Shown in pieces: positions 6,282-44,679 of a DNA stretch of 64,000 nt. The DNA is from Candidatus Dojkabacteria bacterium. Lineage in GTDB: Bacteria > Patescibacteriota > Dojkabacteria > B142 > OLB20. The notes under the pieces were generated by a model, which was not told where the DNA came from, did no database searches, and worked only from the letters and a program-made list of their open reading frames with translations. The position numbers and the translations under genes are program-made. Numbering within the stretch: position 1 is the stretch's first letter; each line of letters starts with the position of its first letter. Where the stretch lies: contig DAOMOX010000001.1 of assembly GCA_035444565.1 (NCBI GenBank), positions 322,335 to 386,334 of the forward strand, written 5' to 3'.

Positions 6282-8387
6282 TTATCTCGCTTTATACTGG
6301 AAATAACCATTACAGTGAAGTAAATCACGAGAATAAAATCCTCCAACACATGCTCCAGCCTCGTTACTCCAAGTGCCTGTTGAAAAGGTATCAGGATCTT
6401 CGGTCTGATAGACAGTAGTTCCAATTGTAATCTTATCTACGTATACGTCCCTCTGAGTACCATCGTTAATAAATTTAATTTTTACCTGAGTTACATCAAA
6501 CGGAACGTTGTGTGTGTATCTATAATTCCCATATGTCGTTCCCATAACATCAAAAGTATGAACTGTAGGCTGTGTTGTTGTAGGATCACCTATTTTAATT
6601 TCTAGTTTCGGCCATACTCCTGATTCACTCCTGGGATATCTAGCCTTAGCTCTCACAATTATGCGTTTTGCACTTGGGTAGGTAGTAGTCGGAACAATTG
6701 TGCCAACTGATGTTGGGATTGGTGTATTATCAGGAGCATTTTCAGAGTTTAATTCAATTGCACCAATATCTGGCATTGATACTCTGGCACTCTTCAAATA
6801 ATCCTGTGATCTAACCGATGTAGGTATACCTGTGTTATTAGAAGGACCAGCACTTGTACCTGCATTTATCGAGATACTATTACTTATTGGATAATAATTA
6901 GCAACATTTACTGCTGTTAATAGCTCACTCAGATTTAAATTGTCTGGTCCAATATTTGGATATTTAATGTTTAAAGGAATCGTAGAATTAACCAATCCTG
7001 GATTATCCTGAAAAACATTACCGGTGCCTTTTATAGAGGTTGATAGTGCCTTAGGAAAAATATTATTACGCACTGTCAGGGCATCATTACCACTTAATTT
7101 GATTGTGATTTTTGATGTTGGGTTTTTTCTTCGATCAAATATGTTATTCTCTAATATTCCACTAACTTTAGGATCCCCACTTTTAGCTGCTTCATGCTGA
7201 ACGCTCAAAAGTGTAGATAATTCATTTCCCGCAATCAATGTGTTGTTTCCAAAATATATTCGATTATTATCGCCTATATGTGATTTATTTGAGCCAGTAA
7301 TAAAAAACCCCATATTTACTATCAAATTATTGTAAATGGCAATGTTTGTATTCATTACATTTCCTGTTTTTAGATGACCCTTTTCATTTCTAAGTCCAAA
7401 CCTCCAAAATCCTGTGGCATCGGTATCCTCATCTCCACCTGCCTTAGGTTTCTTCTCTTCAGGAGCGTAGAAAAGATTATTCCTTACTACTGCATCTTCA
7501 ACCATCCCAGCATAAAAGCTATTTTTGTTTCCAACTACTGTGTTATCTTCAAACAATAAGTCTTTTGAACCGGGCTGGGGTGCTAATTCACCCTCTCCCC
7601 ATGCAAAAGTATTACCTCTAACAACAGAATTCATCCCACCTATGGCTGCACTAATATTTACACAATATTTCAATTCTAATTCACTTAGTGGGGTATCTTT
7701 TGGTTGACAAGCACCTGGTACCCGAACATGATACTCATCTCCCACAGAAGTTCTGGTCATACTATTATTAAGAAATTGAAAATTATCCATTCTTGCAGGA
7801 TAATCACTTTCAGATTCATCAGGATTTGCATACAAACCAGATGAAATCGTCCAGTCAATGATTACATTTTTTACAGTCACATTCTTCATTGTTCCACCAT
7901 TCTCTGTAGAAATTCCCAAACCTCTACCACAAGAGTTTCTTAGGAATAGGCCATCAATAGTTACATTGTTAGTATTCCTTAGTGATAGCAGTGCAGCGAA
8001 TCTTCCTTGTGATGAACACCTACTATTCCATACATTTACAATATTGTCCCAGCTATTATTTAACATTCCAGGCGCAAAACCTCCGTCTATAATAGCTTTA
8101 TGACGATTTTCAGCTTTCCAAGTCAGTCCACTTTTTTCAATTCGAGAATATGCAGGATAAATACCATCTTTGAGAATAATTGTGTCGCCAGGAGAAGCTG
8201 AAGTATCGGCTTTTTTCATGGTTTTCCACGGACTAGTATTTGTACCTGCGTTGGTATCGGACCCATTTGGCGAAAGATAATAGATCGACGCAGCAGAATT
8301 ATCTTCAGGAGCTAAATCCCCCATGAATAAAACTAAATAAACAGACAGAGAAATCACCGATAATACAAGAACTATACCAATAAACAA
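6282..8387 (-). CDS. Secreted right-handed parallel beta-helix protein (DUF1565/pectate-lyase-like) with C-terminal beta-sandwich (possible CBM); paralog 1
   Basis: 701 aa. N-terminal TM/signal. YYLSPNGSDTNAGT...PWKTMKKA...PGDTIILKDGIY start typical of DUF1565 beta-helix proteins. Repetitive N-rich beta-helix rungs. No dockerin-like tail. Confidence 0.6.
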   Translation of the reverse strand: MFIGIVLVLSVISLSVYLVLFMGDLAPEDNSAASIYYLSPNGSDTNAGTNTSPWKTMKKADTSASPGDTIILKDGIYPAYSRIEKSGLTWKAENRHKAIIDGGFAPGMLNNSWDNIVNVWNSRCSSQGRFAALLSLRNTNNVTIDGLFLRNSCGRGLGISTENGGTMKNVTVKNVIIDWTISSGLYANPDESESDYPARMDNFQFLNNSMTRTSVGDEYHVRVPGACQPKDTPLSELELKYCVNISAAIGGMNSVVRGNTFAWGEGELAPQPGSKDLLFEDNTVVGNKNSFYAGMVEDAVVRNNLFYAPEEKKPKAGGDEDTDATGFWRFGLRNEKGHLKTGNVMNTNIAIYNNLIVNMGFFITGSNKSHIGDNNRIYFGNNTLIAGNELSTLLSVQHEAAKSGDPKVSGILENNIFDRRKNPTSKITIKLSGNDALTVRNNIFPKALSTSIKGTGNVFQDNPGLVNSTIPLNIKYPNIGPDNLNLSELLTAVNVANYYPISNSISINAGTSAGPSNNTGIPTSVRSQDYLKSARVSMPDIGAIELNSENAPDNTPIPTSVGTIVPTTTYPSAKRIIVRAKARYPRSESGVWPKLEIKIGDPTTTQPTVHTFDVMGTTYGNYRYTHNVPFDVTQVKIKFINDGTQRDVYVDKITIGTTVYQTEDPDTFSTGTWSNEAGACVGGFYSRDLLHCNGYFQYKAR

Positions 8388-8455
8388 TTTCCTTTTTATT
8401 TATATTGTTTTGAATAAATAAATTATCTAAATTAAATTTTTTAGTTACTTAGTCT

Positions 8456-10537
8456 TTATAATGCACAACTAGTCTTCGGATAATACCTCTGTGCAAATCC
8501 TATTCCAGCTGCTCCAAAGTCTGCAATATTTAACTTCCCATCTCTATTTACATCTCTTCCTCCACAAGAACCATACTCAACATCTTTATCTGCACAAGTA
8601 TTTTTTCCAGTTCCATAGCTTTTAGCAAATTCTGCAAAGTCAGCAATACTGAATTTTCCATCTCCATCCACATCAGCTTTACCACAGATATTCCCTGTAA
8701 CTGGAAGTGTTGGTGTGGCACTTGGAACTGGTGTCAGTGCATTTGATGGTGTTGGTGTTGTACTTGGAGTAATTGAAGGCCCAGGTGTTCGAGTTAATGT
8801 CGGAGTTAAAGATGCACCAGGTGTTTGAGTTGGCGTCGCGGACTGTATTGGTGTTGGGGTACTGGTGTTATAGACCCCTCCGAACTCTATTGCCCCTATA
8901 TCAGGAGTTCCTGTCCTGGTATTTCTCAAAAAATCTTGCGATCTCACTAATTGTGGGATATTAGTTTGGTTAGCACCAGTCCCATTTGATCCTGTATTTA
9001 TTGCGGGACTATTTTGTTTTAATCGATAATTATTAATGTCTAAAGCAGCCCTTAATGCTGCGATATCTAGTGTCTCAGGTCCGATATTTGGATAAACAAG
9101 ATTCAATTCTATTAATGAGTTTACTAATCCAGGATCGTTAGTATAAACATCTCCTGTTCCTTTAACTGAATTGTCAACATTTGTTGGTAATATATTATTT
9201 CTGCGTAGGAATTGGTCATTTCCACTCAGTTGGACATTAATTCTAGCTGATGGATTCTTTCTTCGGTCGAAAATATTATTTTCCATGATTCCTGTTAACA
9301 CTCCATCACCTGAAGATCCTCCCCCATGCTGGATGTGTAGGAGCGAATCCAGTTCCTTTCCAGCAACCAAAGTATTATTTCCAAAGTATATTTGTCTGTT
9401 GTCCCCTATGTGACTACCATTTGTCCCTGTAATAAAGAATCCCATATTAACTATTAAATTATTATAGATAGCAATATTTGTATTCATTGTAGTGGCCTCA
9501 TCCGTATGCCCCTTTTCATTTCGTAGTCCAAGTCTCCAATACCCAGTGGCCTCACTATCTTCATCACCGCCAGCTTTGGGTTTTTTCAATTCTGGGGCAT
9601 AGAATGTATTATTTCTTGCTATAGCATCCTGTACCATTCCAGCATAAAAACTATTTTTATTTCCAACTACAACATTATTTTCAAATAAAAATCCTTTGGA
9701 CCCTGGTTGGGGAGCCAATTCACCTTCACCCCATGCAAATACATTTCCTCTTATAATTGAATTCACTCCACCAAAAGAGGCACTAATATTGACACAATAC
9801 TTTTTAATCTTTTCGTTCTCAGGAGTCGTTTTCGGCTGACAAGCACCTGCCACCCTGACATTATATTCGTCACCTATAGATGTTCTTGTCATAACGTTAT
9901 CAATAAACTGAAAATTATTCATTTTTGTTTGAAATACATCTTTTTGACTGAAAGCCGGCTCTGCATATATACCCGAGGTAGAAGTCCAATCTATCATCGA
10001 ATTTTTGATGGTAATGTTATTGGCAGTTGCACTTGTTGTAGACGTGGAAACTCCTATCCCTCTACCACAGGAATTCCGTATGAAAAGACCATCAATTGTC
10101 ACGTGATCAGCATCTCGAATAGCCAATAAGGCAGCAAACATCCCTTTGTTTGAGCATTTTGTATTCCAAACTGAAACGATATTATTCCAGTTGTTATTCA
10201 ACATCCCCGGAGCGAAGCCCCCATCAATTATAGCTTTATGCTTATTTTCAGCTCTCCAAGTAACGTTCGATTTCCTAAGGGTGATGTAACCGGAATAGAC
10301 ACCATCTTTAAGAACAACAGTATCGCCAGGAGAAGCGCTTGCATCAGCCTTCACCAAAGTTTTCCATGGACTCGAAGTTGTCCCTGGGTTGCTATCGGAT
10401 CCATTTGGAGATAAGTAGTAAATTGTTGCTGCCGAGTCATCCTCGGGTGACCACTCTTGGAACACTAATAAACTCGAAACCATAAGGACTAGTATCCCTA
10501 TTACTGCTAAAGCTAGTGTAAATACTGGTTTCCTCAT
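8456..10537 (-). CDS. Secreted parallel beta-helix protein with Thr/Pro linker and C-terminal Cys-containing dockerin-like Ca-binding module; paralog 2
   Basis: 693 aa. About 70% identical to paralog 1 in the beta-helix part. C-terminus DVDGDGKFSIADFAEF...DVNRDGKLNIADFGAA has two dockerin-type DxDxDG loops plus 4 Cys. Confidence 0.6.
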   Translation of the reverse strand: MRKPVFTLALAVIGILVLMVSSLLVFQEWSPEDDSAATIYYLSPNGSDSNPGTTSSPWKTLVKADASASPGDTVVLKDGVYSGYITLRKSNVTWRAENKHKAIIDGGFAPGMLNNNWNNIVSVWNTKCSNKGMFAALLAIRDADHVTIDGLFIRNSCGRGIGVSTSTTSATANNITIKNSMIDWTSTSGIYAEPAFSQKDVFQTKMNNFQFIDNVMTRTSIGDEYNVRVAGACQPKTTPENEKIKKYCVNISASFGGVNSIIRGNVFAWGEGELAPQPGSKGFLFENNVVVGNKNSFYAGMVQDAIARNNTFYAPELKKPKAGGDEDSEATGYWRLGLRNEKGHTDEATTMNTNIAIYNNLIVNMGFFITGTNGSHIGDNRQIYFGNNTLVAGKELDSLLHIQHGGGSSGDGVLTGIMENNIFDRRKNPSARINVQLSGNDQFLRRNNILPTNVDNSVKGTGDVYTNDPGLVNSLIELNLVYPNIGPETLDIAALRAALDINNYRLKQNSPAINTGSNGTGANQTNIPQLVRSQDFLRNTRTGTPDIGAIEFGGVYNTSTPTPIQSATPTQTPGASLTPTLTRTPGPSITPSTTPTPSNALTPVPSATPTLPVTGNICGKADVDGDGKFSIADFAEFAKSYGTGKNTCADKDVEYGSCGGRDVNRDGKLNIADFGAAGIGFAQRYYPKTSCAL

Positions 10538-10586
10538 AACTAACGATAATAATTATTAAATATCTAAATTTCTTTATACTTCAATC

Positions 10587-12566
10587 TTATATTGCGCAGC
10601 TTAATTTCGGATAATACCTCTGTGCAAATCCTATTCCGGCTGCTCCAAAATCTGCTATATTTAATTTCCCATCTCTATTTACATCTCGACCACCACAAGA
10701 TCCATATTCAACATCTTTATCTGCACATGTATTTTTTCCTGTTCCGTAACTTTTAGCAAACTCTGCAAAATCAGCAATACTAAATTTTCCGTCTCCATCG
10801 ATGTCTGCTTTCCCACATATATTTCCCGTAATTGGTGGAGTTGGAGTATTTGACGCAGCAAGAGGTGGTGTTGGCTTCAAAGTTAGAGTCGGTGTCAATG
10901 TTGGGGTGGACCCAAGACTTGTAGTAGGTGTTGGTGATGTTTGCACTTGTGTAGCTGTCACCAAAGGCGTAGGAGTACTGGTATTGTATACACCGCCGTA
11001 TTCGACTGCCCCAATATCTGGATTTCCTACTCTACTATTTTTGAAAAAATCTTGTGATTTCGCTAACTGTGGAATTTGATATGTAGTATGAGTTGTTGTA
11101 CTAATGCCTGCATTTATTGCTGGACTCGATTGTTTCAATCTGTAATTATTAAGATCCACAGCTGCACGCAAAGCAGTCATGTCAACAGTTGCAGCACCTA
11201 TTGCAGGTATTGGATAATTCAACTGAACCAATGAATTTTGCAATTCCGGATTCGTTGTATAGATATCACCAGGTCCTTTGGTATTGCTTTGAGCAGAAGC
11301 TGGTAAAATATTATTTCTGAATACCAAGTCATCATTCCCACTCAGCGCTGCTTTAATTGTTGCAGAAGGGTCTTTGCTTACATCGAAAATATTATTCTCA
11401 ATTAATCCTGTAATTTTGGAGTCAGACCCATCTCTGGGTGCAAAAACAATATTAAACAAATCATTTGTCTCTTTACCGGTCACTAATGTATTATGACCAA
11501 AATAAACGTTTGTAGTATTCGACGAATAATCTTTATGGTAACCGGAAAAAAGGAAACTGTTATTAAGTATTATATTGTTATAGTAAGCGACATTATTTAA
11601 TCCTGAGGCATAATTTCCCCAACGAGCATCTTTCTCATTACGTGACGAAATGTGCCAATCGTTCTCGTTACCGTTTTTCTTCTCCCAGTGGGTATTTGGA
11701 TTAAGTTGTGATTCAGGAGCCCAGAAGAGATTATTGCGCACAATCACACCATCGGCCCAACCATTATAAAAATTGTTTTTATTTCCAATAATAATATTAT
11801 CTTCAAATAATAGGTTTCGAGAACCCGTCATTGCAATTTCTCCACGTCCCCAAGCAATGATATTGCCTCTCACTACCATGTCCTCACCACTCATATGAAT
11901 ACTAATGTTTACATTGTAGTCATTGCTTGTATATACAGTATATTGATCGTTAAACGAAATTCTTGTAAGTTCATTATTTATCATCTGCAAACCTTTAGTC
12001 TTTCCAGAAACGTAAAATCCAGATACAAAAGTCCAATCAATTCTATTATTTAAAAACTTCGAGTAGTTAACATTCTCGGCAACTAAAACACCTCGACCAC
12101 AGGAGTTTCGCAAGAATAACCCCTCTACCTCAACATTATCAGCCGAAACCGCTACTAACGGAGACCACATCCCTATATTTTTACATTTAGAATCCCAGGC
12201 TGAAACAATATTCTTCCACTCCCCATTAAGTAAACCAGGTCCAAAACCTCCGTCGATAATCGCTTTATGTTTGTTTTCTGCTCTCCAAGTGGTATTGGGT
12301 TTATTGATATTAAAATATGCGCTATATGTACCGTCTTTCAGGATAACAGTATCTCCTGCAGAGATACTACTCATAGCCTTAGAGATAGTCTTCCAGGGAG
12401 ACGAGTTACTTCCGTTATTAGAATCATTCCCATTTGGGGAGAGATAATATACTGATGCTGCGCTATCGTCTTGTGGTGCCCTATCCTGATAAAACAAGAA
12501 TGCGGTGATTGCCAACAAAAAAATACCTAAGGAAAATAATCCTAAAACTACGGCTTTTTCTCTCAT
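10587..12566 (-). CDS. Secreted parallel beta-helix protein with C-terminal dockerin-like module; paralog 3
   Basis: 659 aa. Same N-terminal YYLSPNGNDSN signature. C-terminal 79 aa nearly identical to paralog 2. Confidence 0.6.
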   Translation of the reverse strand: MREKAVVLGLFSLGIFLLAITAFLFYQDRAPQDDSAASVYYLSPNGNDSNNGSNSSPWKTISKAMSSISAGDTVILKDGTYSAYFNINKPNTTWRAENKHKAIIDGGFGPGLLNGEWKNIVSAWDSKCKNIGMWSPLVAVSADNVEVEGLFLRNSCGRGVLVAENVNYSKFLNNRIDWTFVSGFYVSGKTKGLQMINNELTRISFNDQYTVYTSNDYNVNISIHMSGEDMVVRGNIIAWGRGEIAMTGSRNLLFEDNIIIGNKNNFYNGWADGVIVRNNLFWAPESQLNPNTHWEKKNGNENDWHISSRNEKDARWGNYASGLNNVAYYNNIILNNSFLFSGYHKDYSSNTTNVYFGHNTLVTGKETNDLFNIVFAPRDGSDSKITGLIENNIFDVSKDPSATIKAALSGNDDLVFRNNILPASAQSNTKGPGDIYTTNPELQNSLVQLNYPIPAIGAATVDMTALRAAVDLNNYRLKQSSPAINAGISTTTHTTYQIPQLAKSQDFFKNSRVGNPDIGAVEYGGVYNTSTPTPLVTATQVQTSPTPTTSLGSTPTLTPTLTLKPTPPLAASNTPTPPITGNICGKADIDGDGKFSIADFAEFAKSYGTGKNTCADKDVEYGSCGGRDVNRDGKLNIADFGAAGIGFAQRYYPKLSCAI

Positions 12567-19461: not shown

Positions 19462-19653
19462 TTCATTAAGTTATGATGTAAAGAATACTTGAAACTTGCT
19501 AGGTCGTTAATAGAATGAATTATACAATTTAATTACCTCAAAATGTTAATTTCTTTATTCAACACTTTATAATACTCTATGCTAATTGGTATAATAACCA
19601 ACATTGTATAGTTTCTAAAAGTCATTTGAAAACAGTTATTTAATACTTTCGAT

Positions 19654-19725
19654 TCCGCGGTAGCTCAATGGTGGAGCGATCGGCTGTTAACCGAATGGTT
19701 AGAGGTTCGAGTCCTCTCCGCGGAG
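19654..19725 (+). tRNA. tRNA-Asn (anticodon GTT)
   Basis: Cloverleaf folded by hand: acceptor TCCGCGG/CCGCGGA, D arm GCTC-AATGGTG-GAGC, anticodon arm ATCGG-CTGTTAA-CCGAA (one A.A mismatch at 27:43), T arm AGAGG-TTCGAGT-CCTCT, discriminator G. No encoded CCA. Confidence 0.8.
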
Positions 19726-19871
19726 TTGAAGGTATTAATGCATTACTAACCAATCTCATTTTAATTAGGTTCTCCCCCTCCGCAAAAGCTTCGGGGGACT
19801 AACCAGCAGTAGCGTTCGCAAGCTCACCAACTGCTGGTTTAGGAGTCCTCTCCGCGGAGTTGAAGGTATTA
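19709..19871 (+). repeat. 29-bp perfect direct repeat of the tRNA-Asn 3' end (GAGTCCTCTCCGCGGAGTTGAAGGTATTA) at 19709-19737 and 19843-19871, flanking a 105-bp structured spacer
   Basis: Read directly from sequence. Spacer 19738-19842 contains hairpins GGTTCTCCCCC...GGGGGACTAACC and CCAGCAG...CTGCTGG. Confidence 0.85.
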
Positions 19872-44413: not shown

Positions 44414-44487
44414 GCACCAATAGCTCAGATGGATAGAGCGCCACTTTGCGGAAGTGGAGGTCGCAGGTTCGAATCCTGCTTGGTGCA
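44414..44487 (+). tRNA. tRNA-Arg (anticodon read as GCG; verify)
   Basis: Hand fold: acceptor GCACCAA/TTGGTGC, D arm GCTC-AGATGGATA-GAGC, anticodon arm CCACT-TTGCGGA-AGTGG, T arm GCAGG-TTCGAAT-CCTGC, discriminator A. G37 fits CGN readers. Confidence 0.75.
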
Positions 44488-44611
44488 ATCCTTGAAATAC
44501 GTTTTCACCACACAGACATAATCTCAAGGTTAGACCCTTGCTTTCGCAAGGGTAACTCATCCCTATACCTCATGCTTCTGTAAGGGCTGAGTTAATCCTG
44601 CTTGGTGCAAT
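44472..44611 (+). repeat. 18-bp direct repeat of the tRNA-Arg 3' end (AATCCTGCTTGGTGCAAT) at 44472-44489 and 44594-44611, flanking a 104-bp structured spacer
   Basis: Read directly. Spacer 44490-44593 has hairpins CCTTGA...TCAAGG and CCCTTGC-TTTC-GCAAGGG. Confidence 0.85.
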
Positions 44612-44679
44612 TAATGTTAGCTCATTTCCTTAGAAAGTGTCCTTTACCCCCTCAGCAATTCTAATGCTATAATCAAAGC

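Follow-up and report, generated by a model that had tools for sequence, protein, structure and literature searches.

Putative miniature integrative elements with a two-hairpin core at the 3' ends of tRNA genes in Candidatus Dojkabacteria

We describe a family of short structured sequences that lie directly 3' of tRNA genes in Candidatus Dojkabacteria and end in a partial copy of the tRNA they adjoin. In our preferred reading, which we regard as only just probable, they are a miniature, gene-less and non-autonomous family of integrative elements that enter Dojkabacteria tRNA genes by T-loop site-specific recombination catalysed in trans. A precise empty site in near relatives, a core maintained by compensatory base changes, and its recurrence at three different tRNAs are the main observations.

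The window, i.e., the whole 64-kb stretch of DNA that was analysed, is ordinary chromosome, with rpoB/rpoC, the S12/S7 genes, ftsA/ftsZ, rpoD, rnpA, dnaA, dnaN, dnaG, and pcrA. Judged by its relatives, the host is Candidatus Dojkabacteria, a CPR lineage. The source genome is present in several public assemblies, e.g., GCA_035445885.1 (contig DAOMRO010000001.1, 620 kb), and we examined about 84 kb of it together with some 30 related loci (L numbers below). Only two tRNA genes were found in the window, both on the plus strand (ARAGORN, Rfam), and none in the 10 kb of the extended source contig beyond either end; both tRNA genes carry the element. On the minus strand of the window (6282-12566) are three tandem paralogous genes for Pel9A-like beta-helix proteins of about 660-700 aa with near-identical N-termini. 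The features of the two tRNA loci, all on the plus strand, are as follows.

44414-44487, plus strand: intact tRNA-Arg(GCG), the target gene (ARAGORN; Rfam tRNA, 70.6 bits)
44472-44489, plus strand: tRNA-Arg direct repeat copy 1, AATCCTGCTTGGTGCAAT (repeat search, 100% identity)
44490-44526, plus strand: leader of the Arg element, 37 nt of inserted DNA (absent from the empty site of L022/L023/L024)
44527-44593, plus strand: structured core of the Arg element (inverted repeats, fold z-score, match to covariance model R1, covariation counts)
44527-32, plus strand: AGGTT(A) of the Arg core, which resembles the 5' half of the T-arm and is able to form helix P1 with AAT-CCT in repeat copy 2
44534-41 pairing with 44546-53, plus strand: Arg hairpin 1 (hp1), CCCTTGC-TTTC-GCAAGGG
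44553-56, plus strand: TAAC linker of the Arg core
44554-64 pairing with 44583-93, plus strand: Arg hairpin 2 (hp2)
44594-44611, plus strand: tRNA-Arg direct repeat copy 2, an exact AATCCTGCTTGGTGCAAT, partial tRNA 3' end (repeat search)
19653-19726, plus strand: intact tRNA-Asn(GTT) (ARAGORN, Rfam, inverted repeats)
19709-19737, plus strand: tRNA-Asn direct repeat copy 1, 29 nt exact, starting at T-loop position 57 and stopping where the leader/trailer helix ends (repeat search)
19738-19842, plus strand: Asn element, 105-bp spacer (R1 match at 19763-19851, 83 bits)
19738-19766, plus strand: leader of the Asn element
19767-72, plus strand: AGGTTC of the Asn core
19773-98, plus strand: Asn hp1 (CTCCCCC..GGGGGAC)
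19800-03, plus strand: TAAC of the Asn core
19801-10 pairing with 19830-39, plus strand: Asn hp2
19843-19871, plus strand: tRNA-Asn direct repeat copy 2, 29 nt exact (repeat search)

A preliminary description of this DNA had reported that 18 nt of the tRNA-Arg 3' end recur 122 bp downstream (start to start), with spacers of 104 bp at tRNA-Arg and 105 bp at tRNA-Asn, and these coordinates were exact. The positions it gave for AATCTCA (19752-58 / 44520-26), AGGTT (19767-71 / 44527-31), and the two hairpin strings were also correct. Its proposal that these motifs are conserved flanks held for AGGTT and TAAC, which recur throughout the family, but not for AATCTCA, which only some members possess. 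The single hairpin it assigned to each spacer had to be replaced by two conserved ones, the second lying at 44554-44593 and 19801-19839.

The tRNAs upstream of both spacers are complete (66-71 bits, Rfam), and the tRNA-Arg gene does not encode CCA. Both repeats start within the T-loop, after GGTTC(G). Copy 1 at tRNA-Arg, which belongs to the functional tRNA, starts at T-loop position 58 and extends 2 nt beyond the discriminator base; copy 2 forms the distal junction of the insertion, where the post-tRNA sequence of the empty-site strain resumes. An exact 18-nt repeat within a few hundred bases is expected by chance at a rate of about 1e-6, so a repeat this close is far beyond chance. At tRNA-Asn, the 5' leader and 3' trailer (19638-19653 with 19726-19739) lengthen the acceptor stem by about 12 bp, and the 29-nt repeat stops exactly where this helix ends. 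The leader/trailer helix is also kept in L155, with wobble changes. An intact tRNA followed by an insert and a partial tRNA repeat from the T-loop is the hallmark of integrase-mediated integration, as known from tycheposons (10.1101/2020.12.28.424599) and from CIME accretion (PMC5704250).

The inserts themselves carry no genes. Neither spacer contained an ORF of relevant size, the 104-105 bp between the repeats are too short to encode an integrase, and the genes of the window are all of housekeeping type. The repeat search revealed no inverted repeats at the element ends. Rfam (Rfam 15, gathering and permissive thresholds, E up to 10) returned only tRNA at the two loci; its other matches were far below threshold and overlapped the tRNA. 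There was no group I intron match, and the element does not interrupt the tRNA, so the criteria for a tRNA intron (group I, bulge-helix-bulge) are unmet. A promoter or terminator role was unsupported: terminator-like sites were absent from both the Arg and the Asn region, and all promoter-like sites in the two regions lay outside the spacers. As the whole element has about the size of a bare attP, lacks genes, and has a covarying core, we read it as miniature and non-autonomous, and as mobilised in trans.

Across the related loci, the family unit measures about 122-145 bp. Its parts are 17-29 nt of tRNA sequence, beginning mid-T-loop and continuing to the 3' end, a leader, and a core of 65-75 nt. 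In every copy, AGGTT lies 39-46 nt beyond the end of the tRNA. The core opens with AGGTTC, a hexamer that also stands ahead of the junction in the T-arm of the tRNA itself, and closes with GGTT plus 3 nt immediately before the repeated T-loop half; the A-type core at tRNA-Arg in the window closes with GAGTT and no extra nucleotides. The consensus layout is T(T/A)AGGTTC - hp1 - GA(C/T)TAACC - hp2 (AACCAGC...GCTGGTT) - GA(A/G)G - T-loop 3' half and 3' end of the host tRNA. The leader of the Arg element is little conserved across the family. The left-hand end of the repeat is fixed in the T-loop and the right-hand end varies (17, 18, about 20, or 29 nt), reaching 0 to 3 nt past the discriminator at tRNA-Arg and tRNA-Gln and 11 nt past it at tRNA-Asn.

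These three tRNAs (Arg, Asn, and Gln) are the ones at which the element was found. The Gln copies came from a pattern scan of metagenomes, which returned no more than the window's own Asn locus, carried in identical form by the activated-sludge contig L013, and a further contig, L012; the scan pattern was narrow, and abundance is therefore understated. In L012, two tandem units follow tRNA-Gln(CTG), and a tRNA-Gln 3' repeat closes each of them.

Two copies bear additional insertions, and the variant with a nested hairpin exceeds the usual unit length. At L001:9800-9829, hp2 contains a further nested insert of about 30 nt (TCAGCCAAAGGCTGATCAGCCACTGGCTGA), part of which forms a small hairpin of its own in the MFE fold. 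On the minus strand of L159 (4105-4135), a 23-nt GC-rich hairpin (GCCCCTGTCTAACGACAGGCAGG) splits the T-loop part of the distal tRNA repeat in the older tRNA-Gln unit.

The unity of the family was assessed with R1, a covariance model built from seven copies, none of them an Arg A-type copy. R1 matched the Arg locus of the window (44523-44601) with 35 bits and E = 3.7e-6 in 281 kb, and it recovered A-type copies at E 1e-5 to 1e-6. In the 64-kb window, it detected nothing beyond the Arg and Asn copies, and in the 281 kb of Dojkabacteria DNA it matched only directly 3' of tRNA genes, where the contig reached far enough upstream. The preliminary description had allowed that the motifs shared by the Arg and Asn spacers might coincide by chance. 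On the strength of the model, the two spacers are one family and their likeness is not chance, because R1 finds the Arg spacer without having been built on A-type copies. The broader suspicion, that the family as a whole rests on accidental similarity or on an artefact of assembly or duplication, can practically be dismissed: it has nothing beyond the AT-rich context to recommend it, whereas the same loci occur in independent assemblies (ENA, NCBI, JGI, and Logan), the E-values of the covariance model range from 1e-6 to 1e-24, and the repeats are exact at 18 and 29 nt.

The presence of the element differs between strains. Syntenic loci were fetched via the gene for a RodZ-like protein that follows tRNA-Arg. 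In L022, L023, and L024, where both flanking genes share 94-96% nucleotide identity with those of the window, the tRNA-Arg site is empty, and the window has exactly 122 bp more, i.e., leader, core, and one 18-nt repeat. The more distant L004 is also empty at tRNA-Arg, and L160 (ThrRS protein identity 79%) is empty at tRNA-Gln. L159, whose ThrRS protein is 92% identical to that of L012, has only the older distal tRNA-Gln unit and lacks the proximal copy of L012. Conversely, the type A element of the window is 96.2% and 94.2% identical to those of L026 and L025, respectively, whereas identity between the window and these two loci is no more than 74-77% in the flanking genes and 69% in the tRNA promoter spacer. 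The Asn elements of the window and L155 are 94.3% identical, with flanks at 80-85%, and all six differences fall in the hp1 loop or just 5' of AGGTT. Absence from the nearest strain combined with near-identity in distant ones implies recent gain or loss, i.e., mobility.

The number and order of units also vary. In L025, the order is tRNA, type B, repeat, type A, repeat; in L026, L027, and L028, it is tRNA, type A, repeat, truncated type B. In both L025 and L026, the Arg leader accompanies the core. L001 and L003 each combine a fresh unit on the proximal side with a decayed unit on the distal side, and L030, L031, and L032 have arrays of near-identical 132-bp units at tRNA-Arg, the copy number of which differs among samples. 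Where copies are unequal in age or intactness, the fresher, intact one adjoins the tRNA and the distal one is truncated or diverged, an order that, like the layout, points to conservative site-specific integration; the tRNA is intact in every case. The mobile element family suggested in the preliminary description gained strong support from the precise empty site, the contrast between element (94-96%) and flank (69-77%) identity, the three tRNAs, and the variable tandem number, and the copy-number variation it had proposed to look for was found: strains have no copy, one, two, or arrays of 132-bp units.

It is nevertheless conceivable, if unlikely, that the units are immobile scars resembling CIMEs, each the remnant of a larger integrase-carrying prophage, plasmid, or island, with the arrays recording successive large integrations. 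The arrangement fits an att signature, distal copies are truncated, and accretion and decay of older elements are documented elsewhere (10.1101/2020.12.28.424599; PMC5704250). Independent deletions, however, would not yield the same boundaries, the constant 39-46 nt, and a two-hairpin core at three tRNAs. Nor would they account for an element A that retains 94-96% identity where flanks have fallen to about 75% and is missing in the closest strain, for tandem amplification of near-identical 132-bp units, or for hairpins maintained by compensatory changes. No parent element was found in the viral, phage, and plasmid collections or in the fetched loci.

Several details of these loci were recorded separately. 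A run of N lies inside the tRNA-Arg array at L030:2270-2385; the 132-bp repeats break metagenome assemblies or leave scaffold gaps in them. Three independent distal units (L026:2391-2451, L031:1470-1537, and L001:9919-9975) are truncated at nearly identical positions, where the 5' strand of hp2 begins (TTAACCA/, the slash marking the end), and lack the remainder of hp2 and the tRNA repeat. This common truncation point could reflect recurrent deletion at the hairpin or a site-specific event. Window positions 44612-44656 (..GTC(A/C)TTTA(A/C)CCCCTCAG..), which also form the post-tRNA flank of the empty strain, resemble the type-B leader CACATGTCGTTTACCTCAGG (L026:2347-2390), and this resemblance raises the possibility that an old unit, deleted for the most part, is present even at the empty site.

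The secondary structure of the core was evaluated by folding and by covariation. The Arg spacer plus repeat folds more stably than shuffled sequence (z = -3.4). For covariation, 12 distinct copies were aligned to R1 and compared with 500 shuffles, and sliding the partners by 1-3 columns served as a control. Standard pairs filled 88.5% of pair cells versus 77.4% in shuffled data (0 of 500 shuffles reached the observed value), 13 pairs had changes on both sides (1 of 500 shuffles), and the covariation score was 0.305 versus 0.124 for shuffled data and at most 0.098 for the slid controls. The fifth pair of hp1, for example, is T-A, C-G, or G-C depending on the copy, and hp2 is AACTCA-T-CCCT/AGGG-C-TGAGTT in type A and AACCAGC-T-CTA/TAG-T-GCTGGTT in the others. 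The alignment follows the model itself, and a large share of the signal stems from the contrast between type A and the other copies. With these caveats, it is statistically supported that hp1 and hp2 are kept by compensatory changes and that pairing rather than sequence is conserved; the covarying stem of the preliminary description thereby extends to two hairpins. A third helix, P1, joins AGGTTC of the core with GAA(T)CCT of the distal repeat in a T-arm-like stem that encloses both hairpins. P1 is compatible with all copies but hardly varies, and it is not proven. G-T and A-C mismatches were equally frequent (11 versus 11); therefore, neither the folded strand nor its nature as RNA or DNA can be assigned.

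A conserved fold raises the question of a function for the host. In such a case, the sequence would be a structured RNA co-transcribed with the tRNA as a processing, stability, or regulatory module, and the repeat would be a by-product. The covarying hairpins, the z-score given above, and sequence conservation exceeding that of neighbouring genes agree with this, and an element without its own promoter or terminator would be read through from the tRNA promoter. We nonetheless consider a host-serving RNA improbable, given its presence or absence between near-identical strains, the empty sites of distant relatives, the varying copy number, and the free decay of distal copies. In addition, G-U is not in excess of A-C on the transcribed strand, and there was no Rfam match.

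In the integrative reading that we prefer, conservative site-specific recombination would take place between the T-loop/3' region of the tRNA (attB-like) and the same segment on the element (attP-like), by way of an intermediate that is either circular or single-stranded. A tyrosine recombinase is the likeliest enzyme; it would be encoded elsewhere in the genome or on another element, and the hairpin core would be its recognition module. The core may act as a folded single strand in which AGGTTC and GAAT-CCT are joined in a T-arm-like helix.

Part of the evidence counts against such an att mechanism. The preliminary description had suggested looking for a trans-encoded recombinase in the genome; none was found in the element, the 64-kb window, or the approximately 20 kb fetched beyond it (10 kb at each end), and the viral, phage, and plasmid collections yielded no parent element. 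For recombination between double strands, a circle of 122-145 bp would be very small. At the distal junction, the sequence is GCTGG-TTGAAGAAT-CCTGC versus GCAGG-TTCGAAT-CCTGC in the tRNA, with identity from position 57 only, and its T-loop (GGTT-GAA-GAATCC) is 2 nt longer than that of the tRNA (GGTT-C-GAATCC). A classical exchange of the whole 7-nt T-loop is therefore unlikely, and the crossover would have to fall inside the block that is identical. The Asn trailer has a lineage-specific SNP, with G in the two repeat copies of the window and A in the two of L155, which a simple attP x attB reaction does not predict without gene conversion or re-insertion. That one core family carries the correct 3' segment of three tRNAs remains unexplained by the att reading. 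Loop length, the three tRNA ends, the variable right end, and the trailer SNP fit a target-duplicating mechanism or else require gene conversion.

Under target duplication, only leader and core would move, and the tRNA 3' repeat would be a target-site duplication. It could arise by staggered structure-guided cuts (in the T-loop and just past the pre-tRNA helix), or else by template switching or target-primed copying. A repeat that matches the local tRNA at three targets is then explained automatically, as are lineage-specific variants shared by both copies, such as the trailer G/G in the window and A/A in L155; the 5' duplication of L155 (see below) likewise has an L155-specific leader variant. 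The variable right end and the left end fixed in the T-loop also fit. Set against these points are the absence of terminal inverted repeats, the lack of any transposase or reverse transcriptase gene nearby (window plus 10 kb on either side), and a duplication length that is not fixed as in transposase duplications. Moreover, the Asn boundary is identical in three lineages, for which one old event with conversion is as good an explanation as repeated precise cutting. We judge this mechanism doubtful. A duplication of 51-60 nt with the leader as duplicated native trailer, suggested by L001, was considered separately and rejected for element A, as the empty site lacks the leader and the leader moves with the core. 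A tRNA-like fold of the leader CACCA with the repeated acceptor strand was likewise set aside, the pairing not being conserved in other copies or tRNAs.

Searches for relatives and parents were negative. Three DNA patterns in IMG/VR gave chance matches only, and none of the 129 such loci screened with R1 matched at E up to 1. The core had no blastn match among INPHARED phages or PLSDB plasmids, and no larger parent element with the same core was detected in viral, phage, or plasmid collections or in the fetched loci. For the loci fetched with gene tables, we noted no HUH gene in the Pfam annotation of the called genes. Literature searches, including a paper on Patescibacteria tRNA introns, yielded no equivalent element. 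The earlier impression that the element is undescribed thus stood up to Rfam, the phage, plasmid, and viral collections, and the literature searches.

Other insertions were noticed at neighbouring tRNA genes. In L155 (positions 2510-2760; JGI 3300061720), the 5' leader and tRNA-Asn nt 1-19 (ATTTAGTACTTTCGATTCCGCGGTAGCTCAAT) are duplicated upstream of the full tRNA, a mirror-image insertion. An unrelated structured insert of about 205 bp, without R1 or Rfam match and absent from the window, lies between the copies, and the junction carries a perfect inverted repeat, AGCTCA-ATTTAA-TGAGCT, that mimics the D-arm. Downstream of tRNA-Gly(TCC), L012 (3328-3560) and L159 (2815-3075) have a different array with partial tRNA-Gly 3' copies that start from the T-stem 5' strand. 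Its units consist of GGTTCGAxGxAG, a hairpin, and CCGCTTTTT, and the tRNA-Gly site of L160 is empty. These arrays look like a second family of T-loop-associated mini-insertions.

We also entertain, tentatively, the possibility of a new class of mobile element, namely a self-contained, structure-defined recombination module of about 120 bp that propagates as folded single-stranded DNA, or through an RNA intermediate, and is inserted into any tRNA by a T-arm-recognising host or helper enzyme. AGGTTC and GAAT-CCT would re-form a T-arm-like helix around the two hairpins, and the displaced tRNA 3' end would be copied or restored. Such a module would be an attC-like or viroid-sized parasite of CPR tRNA genes, and the D-loop insertion of L155 and the tRNA-Gly arrays would be sister families of the same process.

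If the integrative reading is true, these are, to our knowledge, among the smallest site-specific integrative elements, with about 120 bp and no genes, in genomes of less than 1 Mb. CPR tRNA genes would then be turnover hot spots even without a visible prophage or island. The element would represent a minimal natural att module with seemingly structure-dependent recognition, which could make the reading of sites by tRNA-targeting recombinases testable and could bring to light a recombinase, or another kind of enzyme, that acts in trans in CPR bacteria. Partial tRNA copies in arrays could also complicate tRNA annotation.

Finally, we compared the element with known systems. Measured against the criteria for an integrase-type tRNA element, the tRNA/repeat ends and an empty attB are met, whereas an own integrase is not. 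In its behaviour, the element resembles a CIME or a satellite of a tRNA-integrating element, although it lacks defining features of each known kind. CIMEs are ICEs or IMEs in decay that measure kilobases and whose parent can be recognised. Among streptococcal ICEs and IMEs, they lack integrase and transfer genes, keep attL and attR, and occupy the 3' end of the target gene, where new elements integrate beside them and form tandems (PMC5704250). The Dojkabacteria element shares the absence of genes, the retained attL/attR-like repeats, the position at the 3' end of the target gene, and the tandems, but differs in its 122-145 bp unit, its conserved covarying hairpin core, its three tRNAs, and the lack of a detected parent. 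In the tycheposons of Prochlorococcus, the full tRNA is restored, a partial repeat marks the far end, older elements are pushed outward, and degenerate remnants occur (10.1101/2020.12.28.424599). The intact tRNA, the far partial repeat, and the outward position of older copies are likewise common to our element, the tycheposons, and tRNA-integrating prophages and islands. Those systems, however, have a tyrosine recombinase, cargo, and kilobases of DNA, whereas the Dojkabacteria element has no genes and its spacer is a conserved structured module.

Integron attC sites are imperfect hairpins that are conserved by pairing and flanked by AAC...GTT, and the newest cassette adjoins a fixed site. The element is similar in having structure-defined hairpins flanked by AAC...GTT and the newest unit proximal. 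It departs from attC in that GAYTAAC and GTTGARG are each one position off the RYYYAAC and GTTRRRY consensus, and in that the unit boundary lies 3-4 nt 3' of GTT (3' of GTTGAA) rather than between the G and TT. It also lacks intI and attI (no integrase was seen in the window), and integrons do not have a target repeat of 17-29 nt. IMEX such as the CTX phage use the host XerCD, have no recombinase of their own, and possess a folded single-stranded attP. The absence of an own recombinase and a folded single-stranded hairpin that can create a site are points of likeness; unlike IMEX, the element targets the tRNA T-loop instead of dif and is about 40 times smaller.

MITEs, REP/BIME, and the Rickettsia palindromic elements are, like our element, gene-less, about 100-150 bp long, hairpin-rich, and non-autonomous. 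The Dojkabacteria element, in contrast to these, has no terminal inverted repeats, its duplication is 17-29 nt and variable rather than short and fixed, it is strict in targeting tRNA T-loops, and a 3' segment, whether carried along or duplicated, restores the essential gene. It is set apart from IS200/IS605-derived PATE and from REP/RAYT by hairpins that are adjacent and internal, by the long target repeat, and by the absence of a noted HUH gene, and from an intrinsic terminator by the lack of a GC-rich hairpin with a T run (0 sites).
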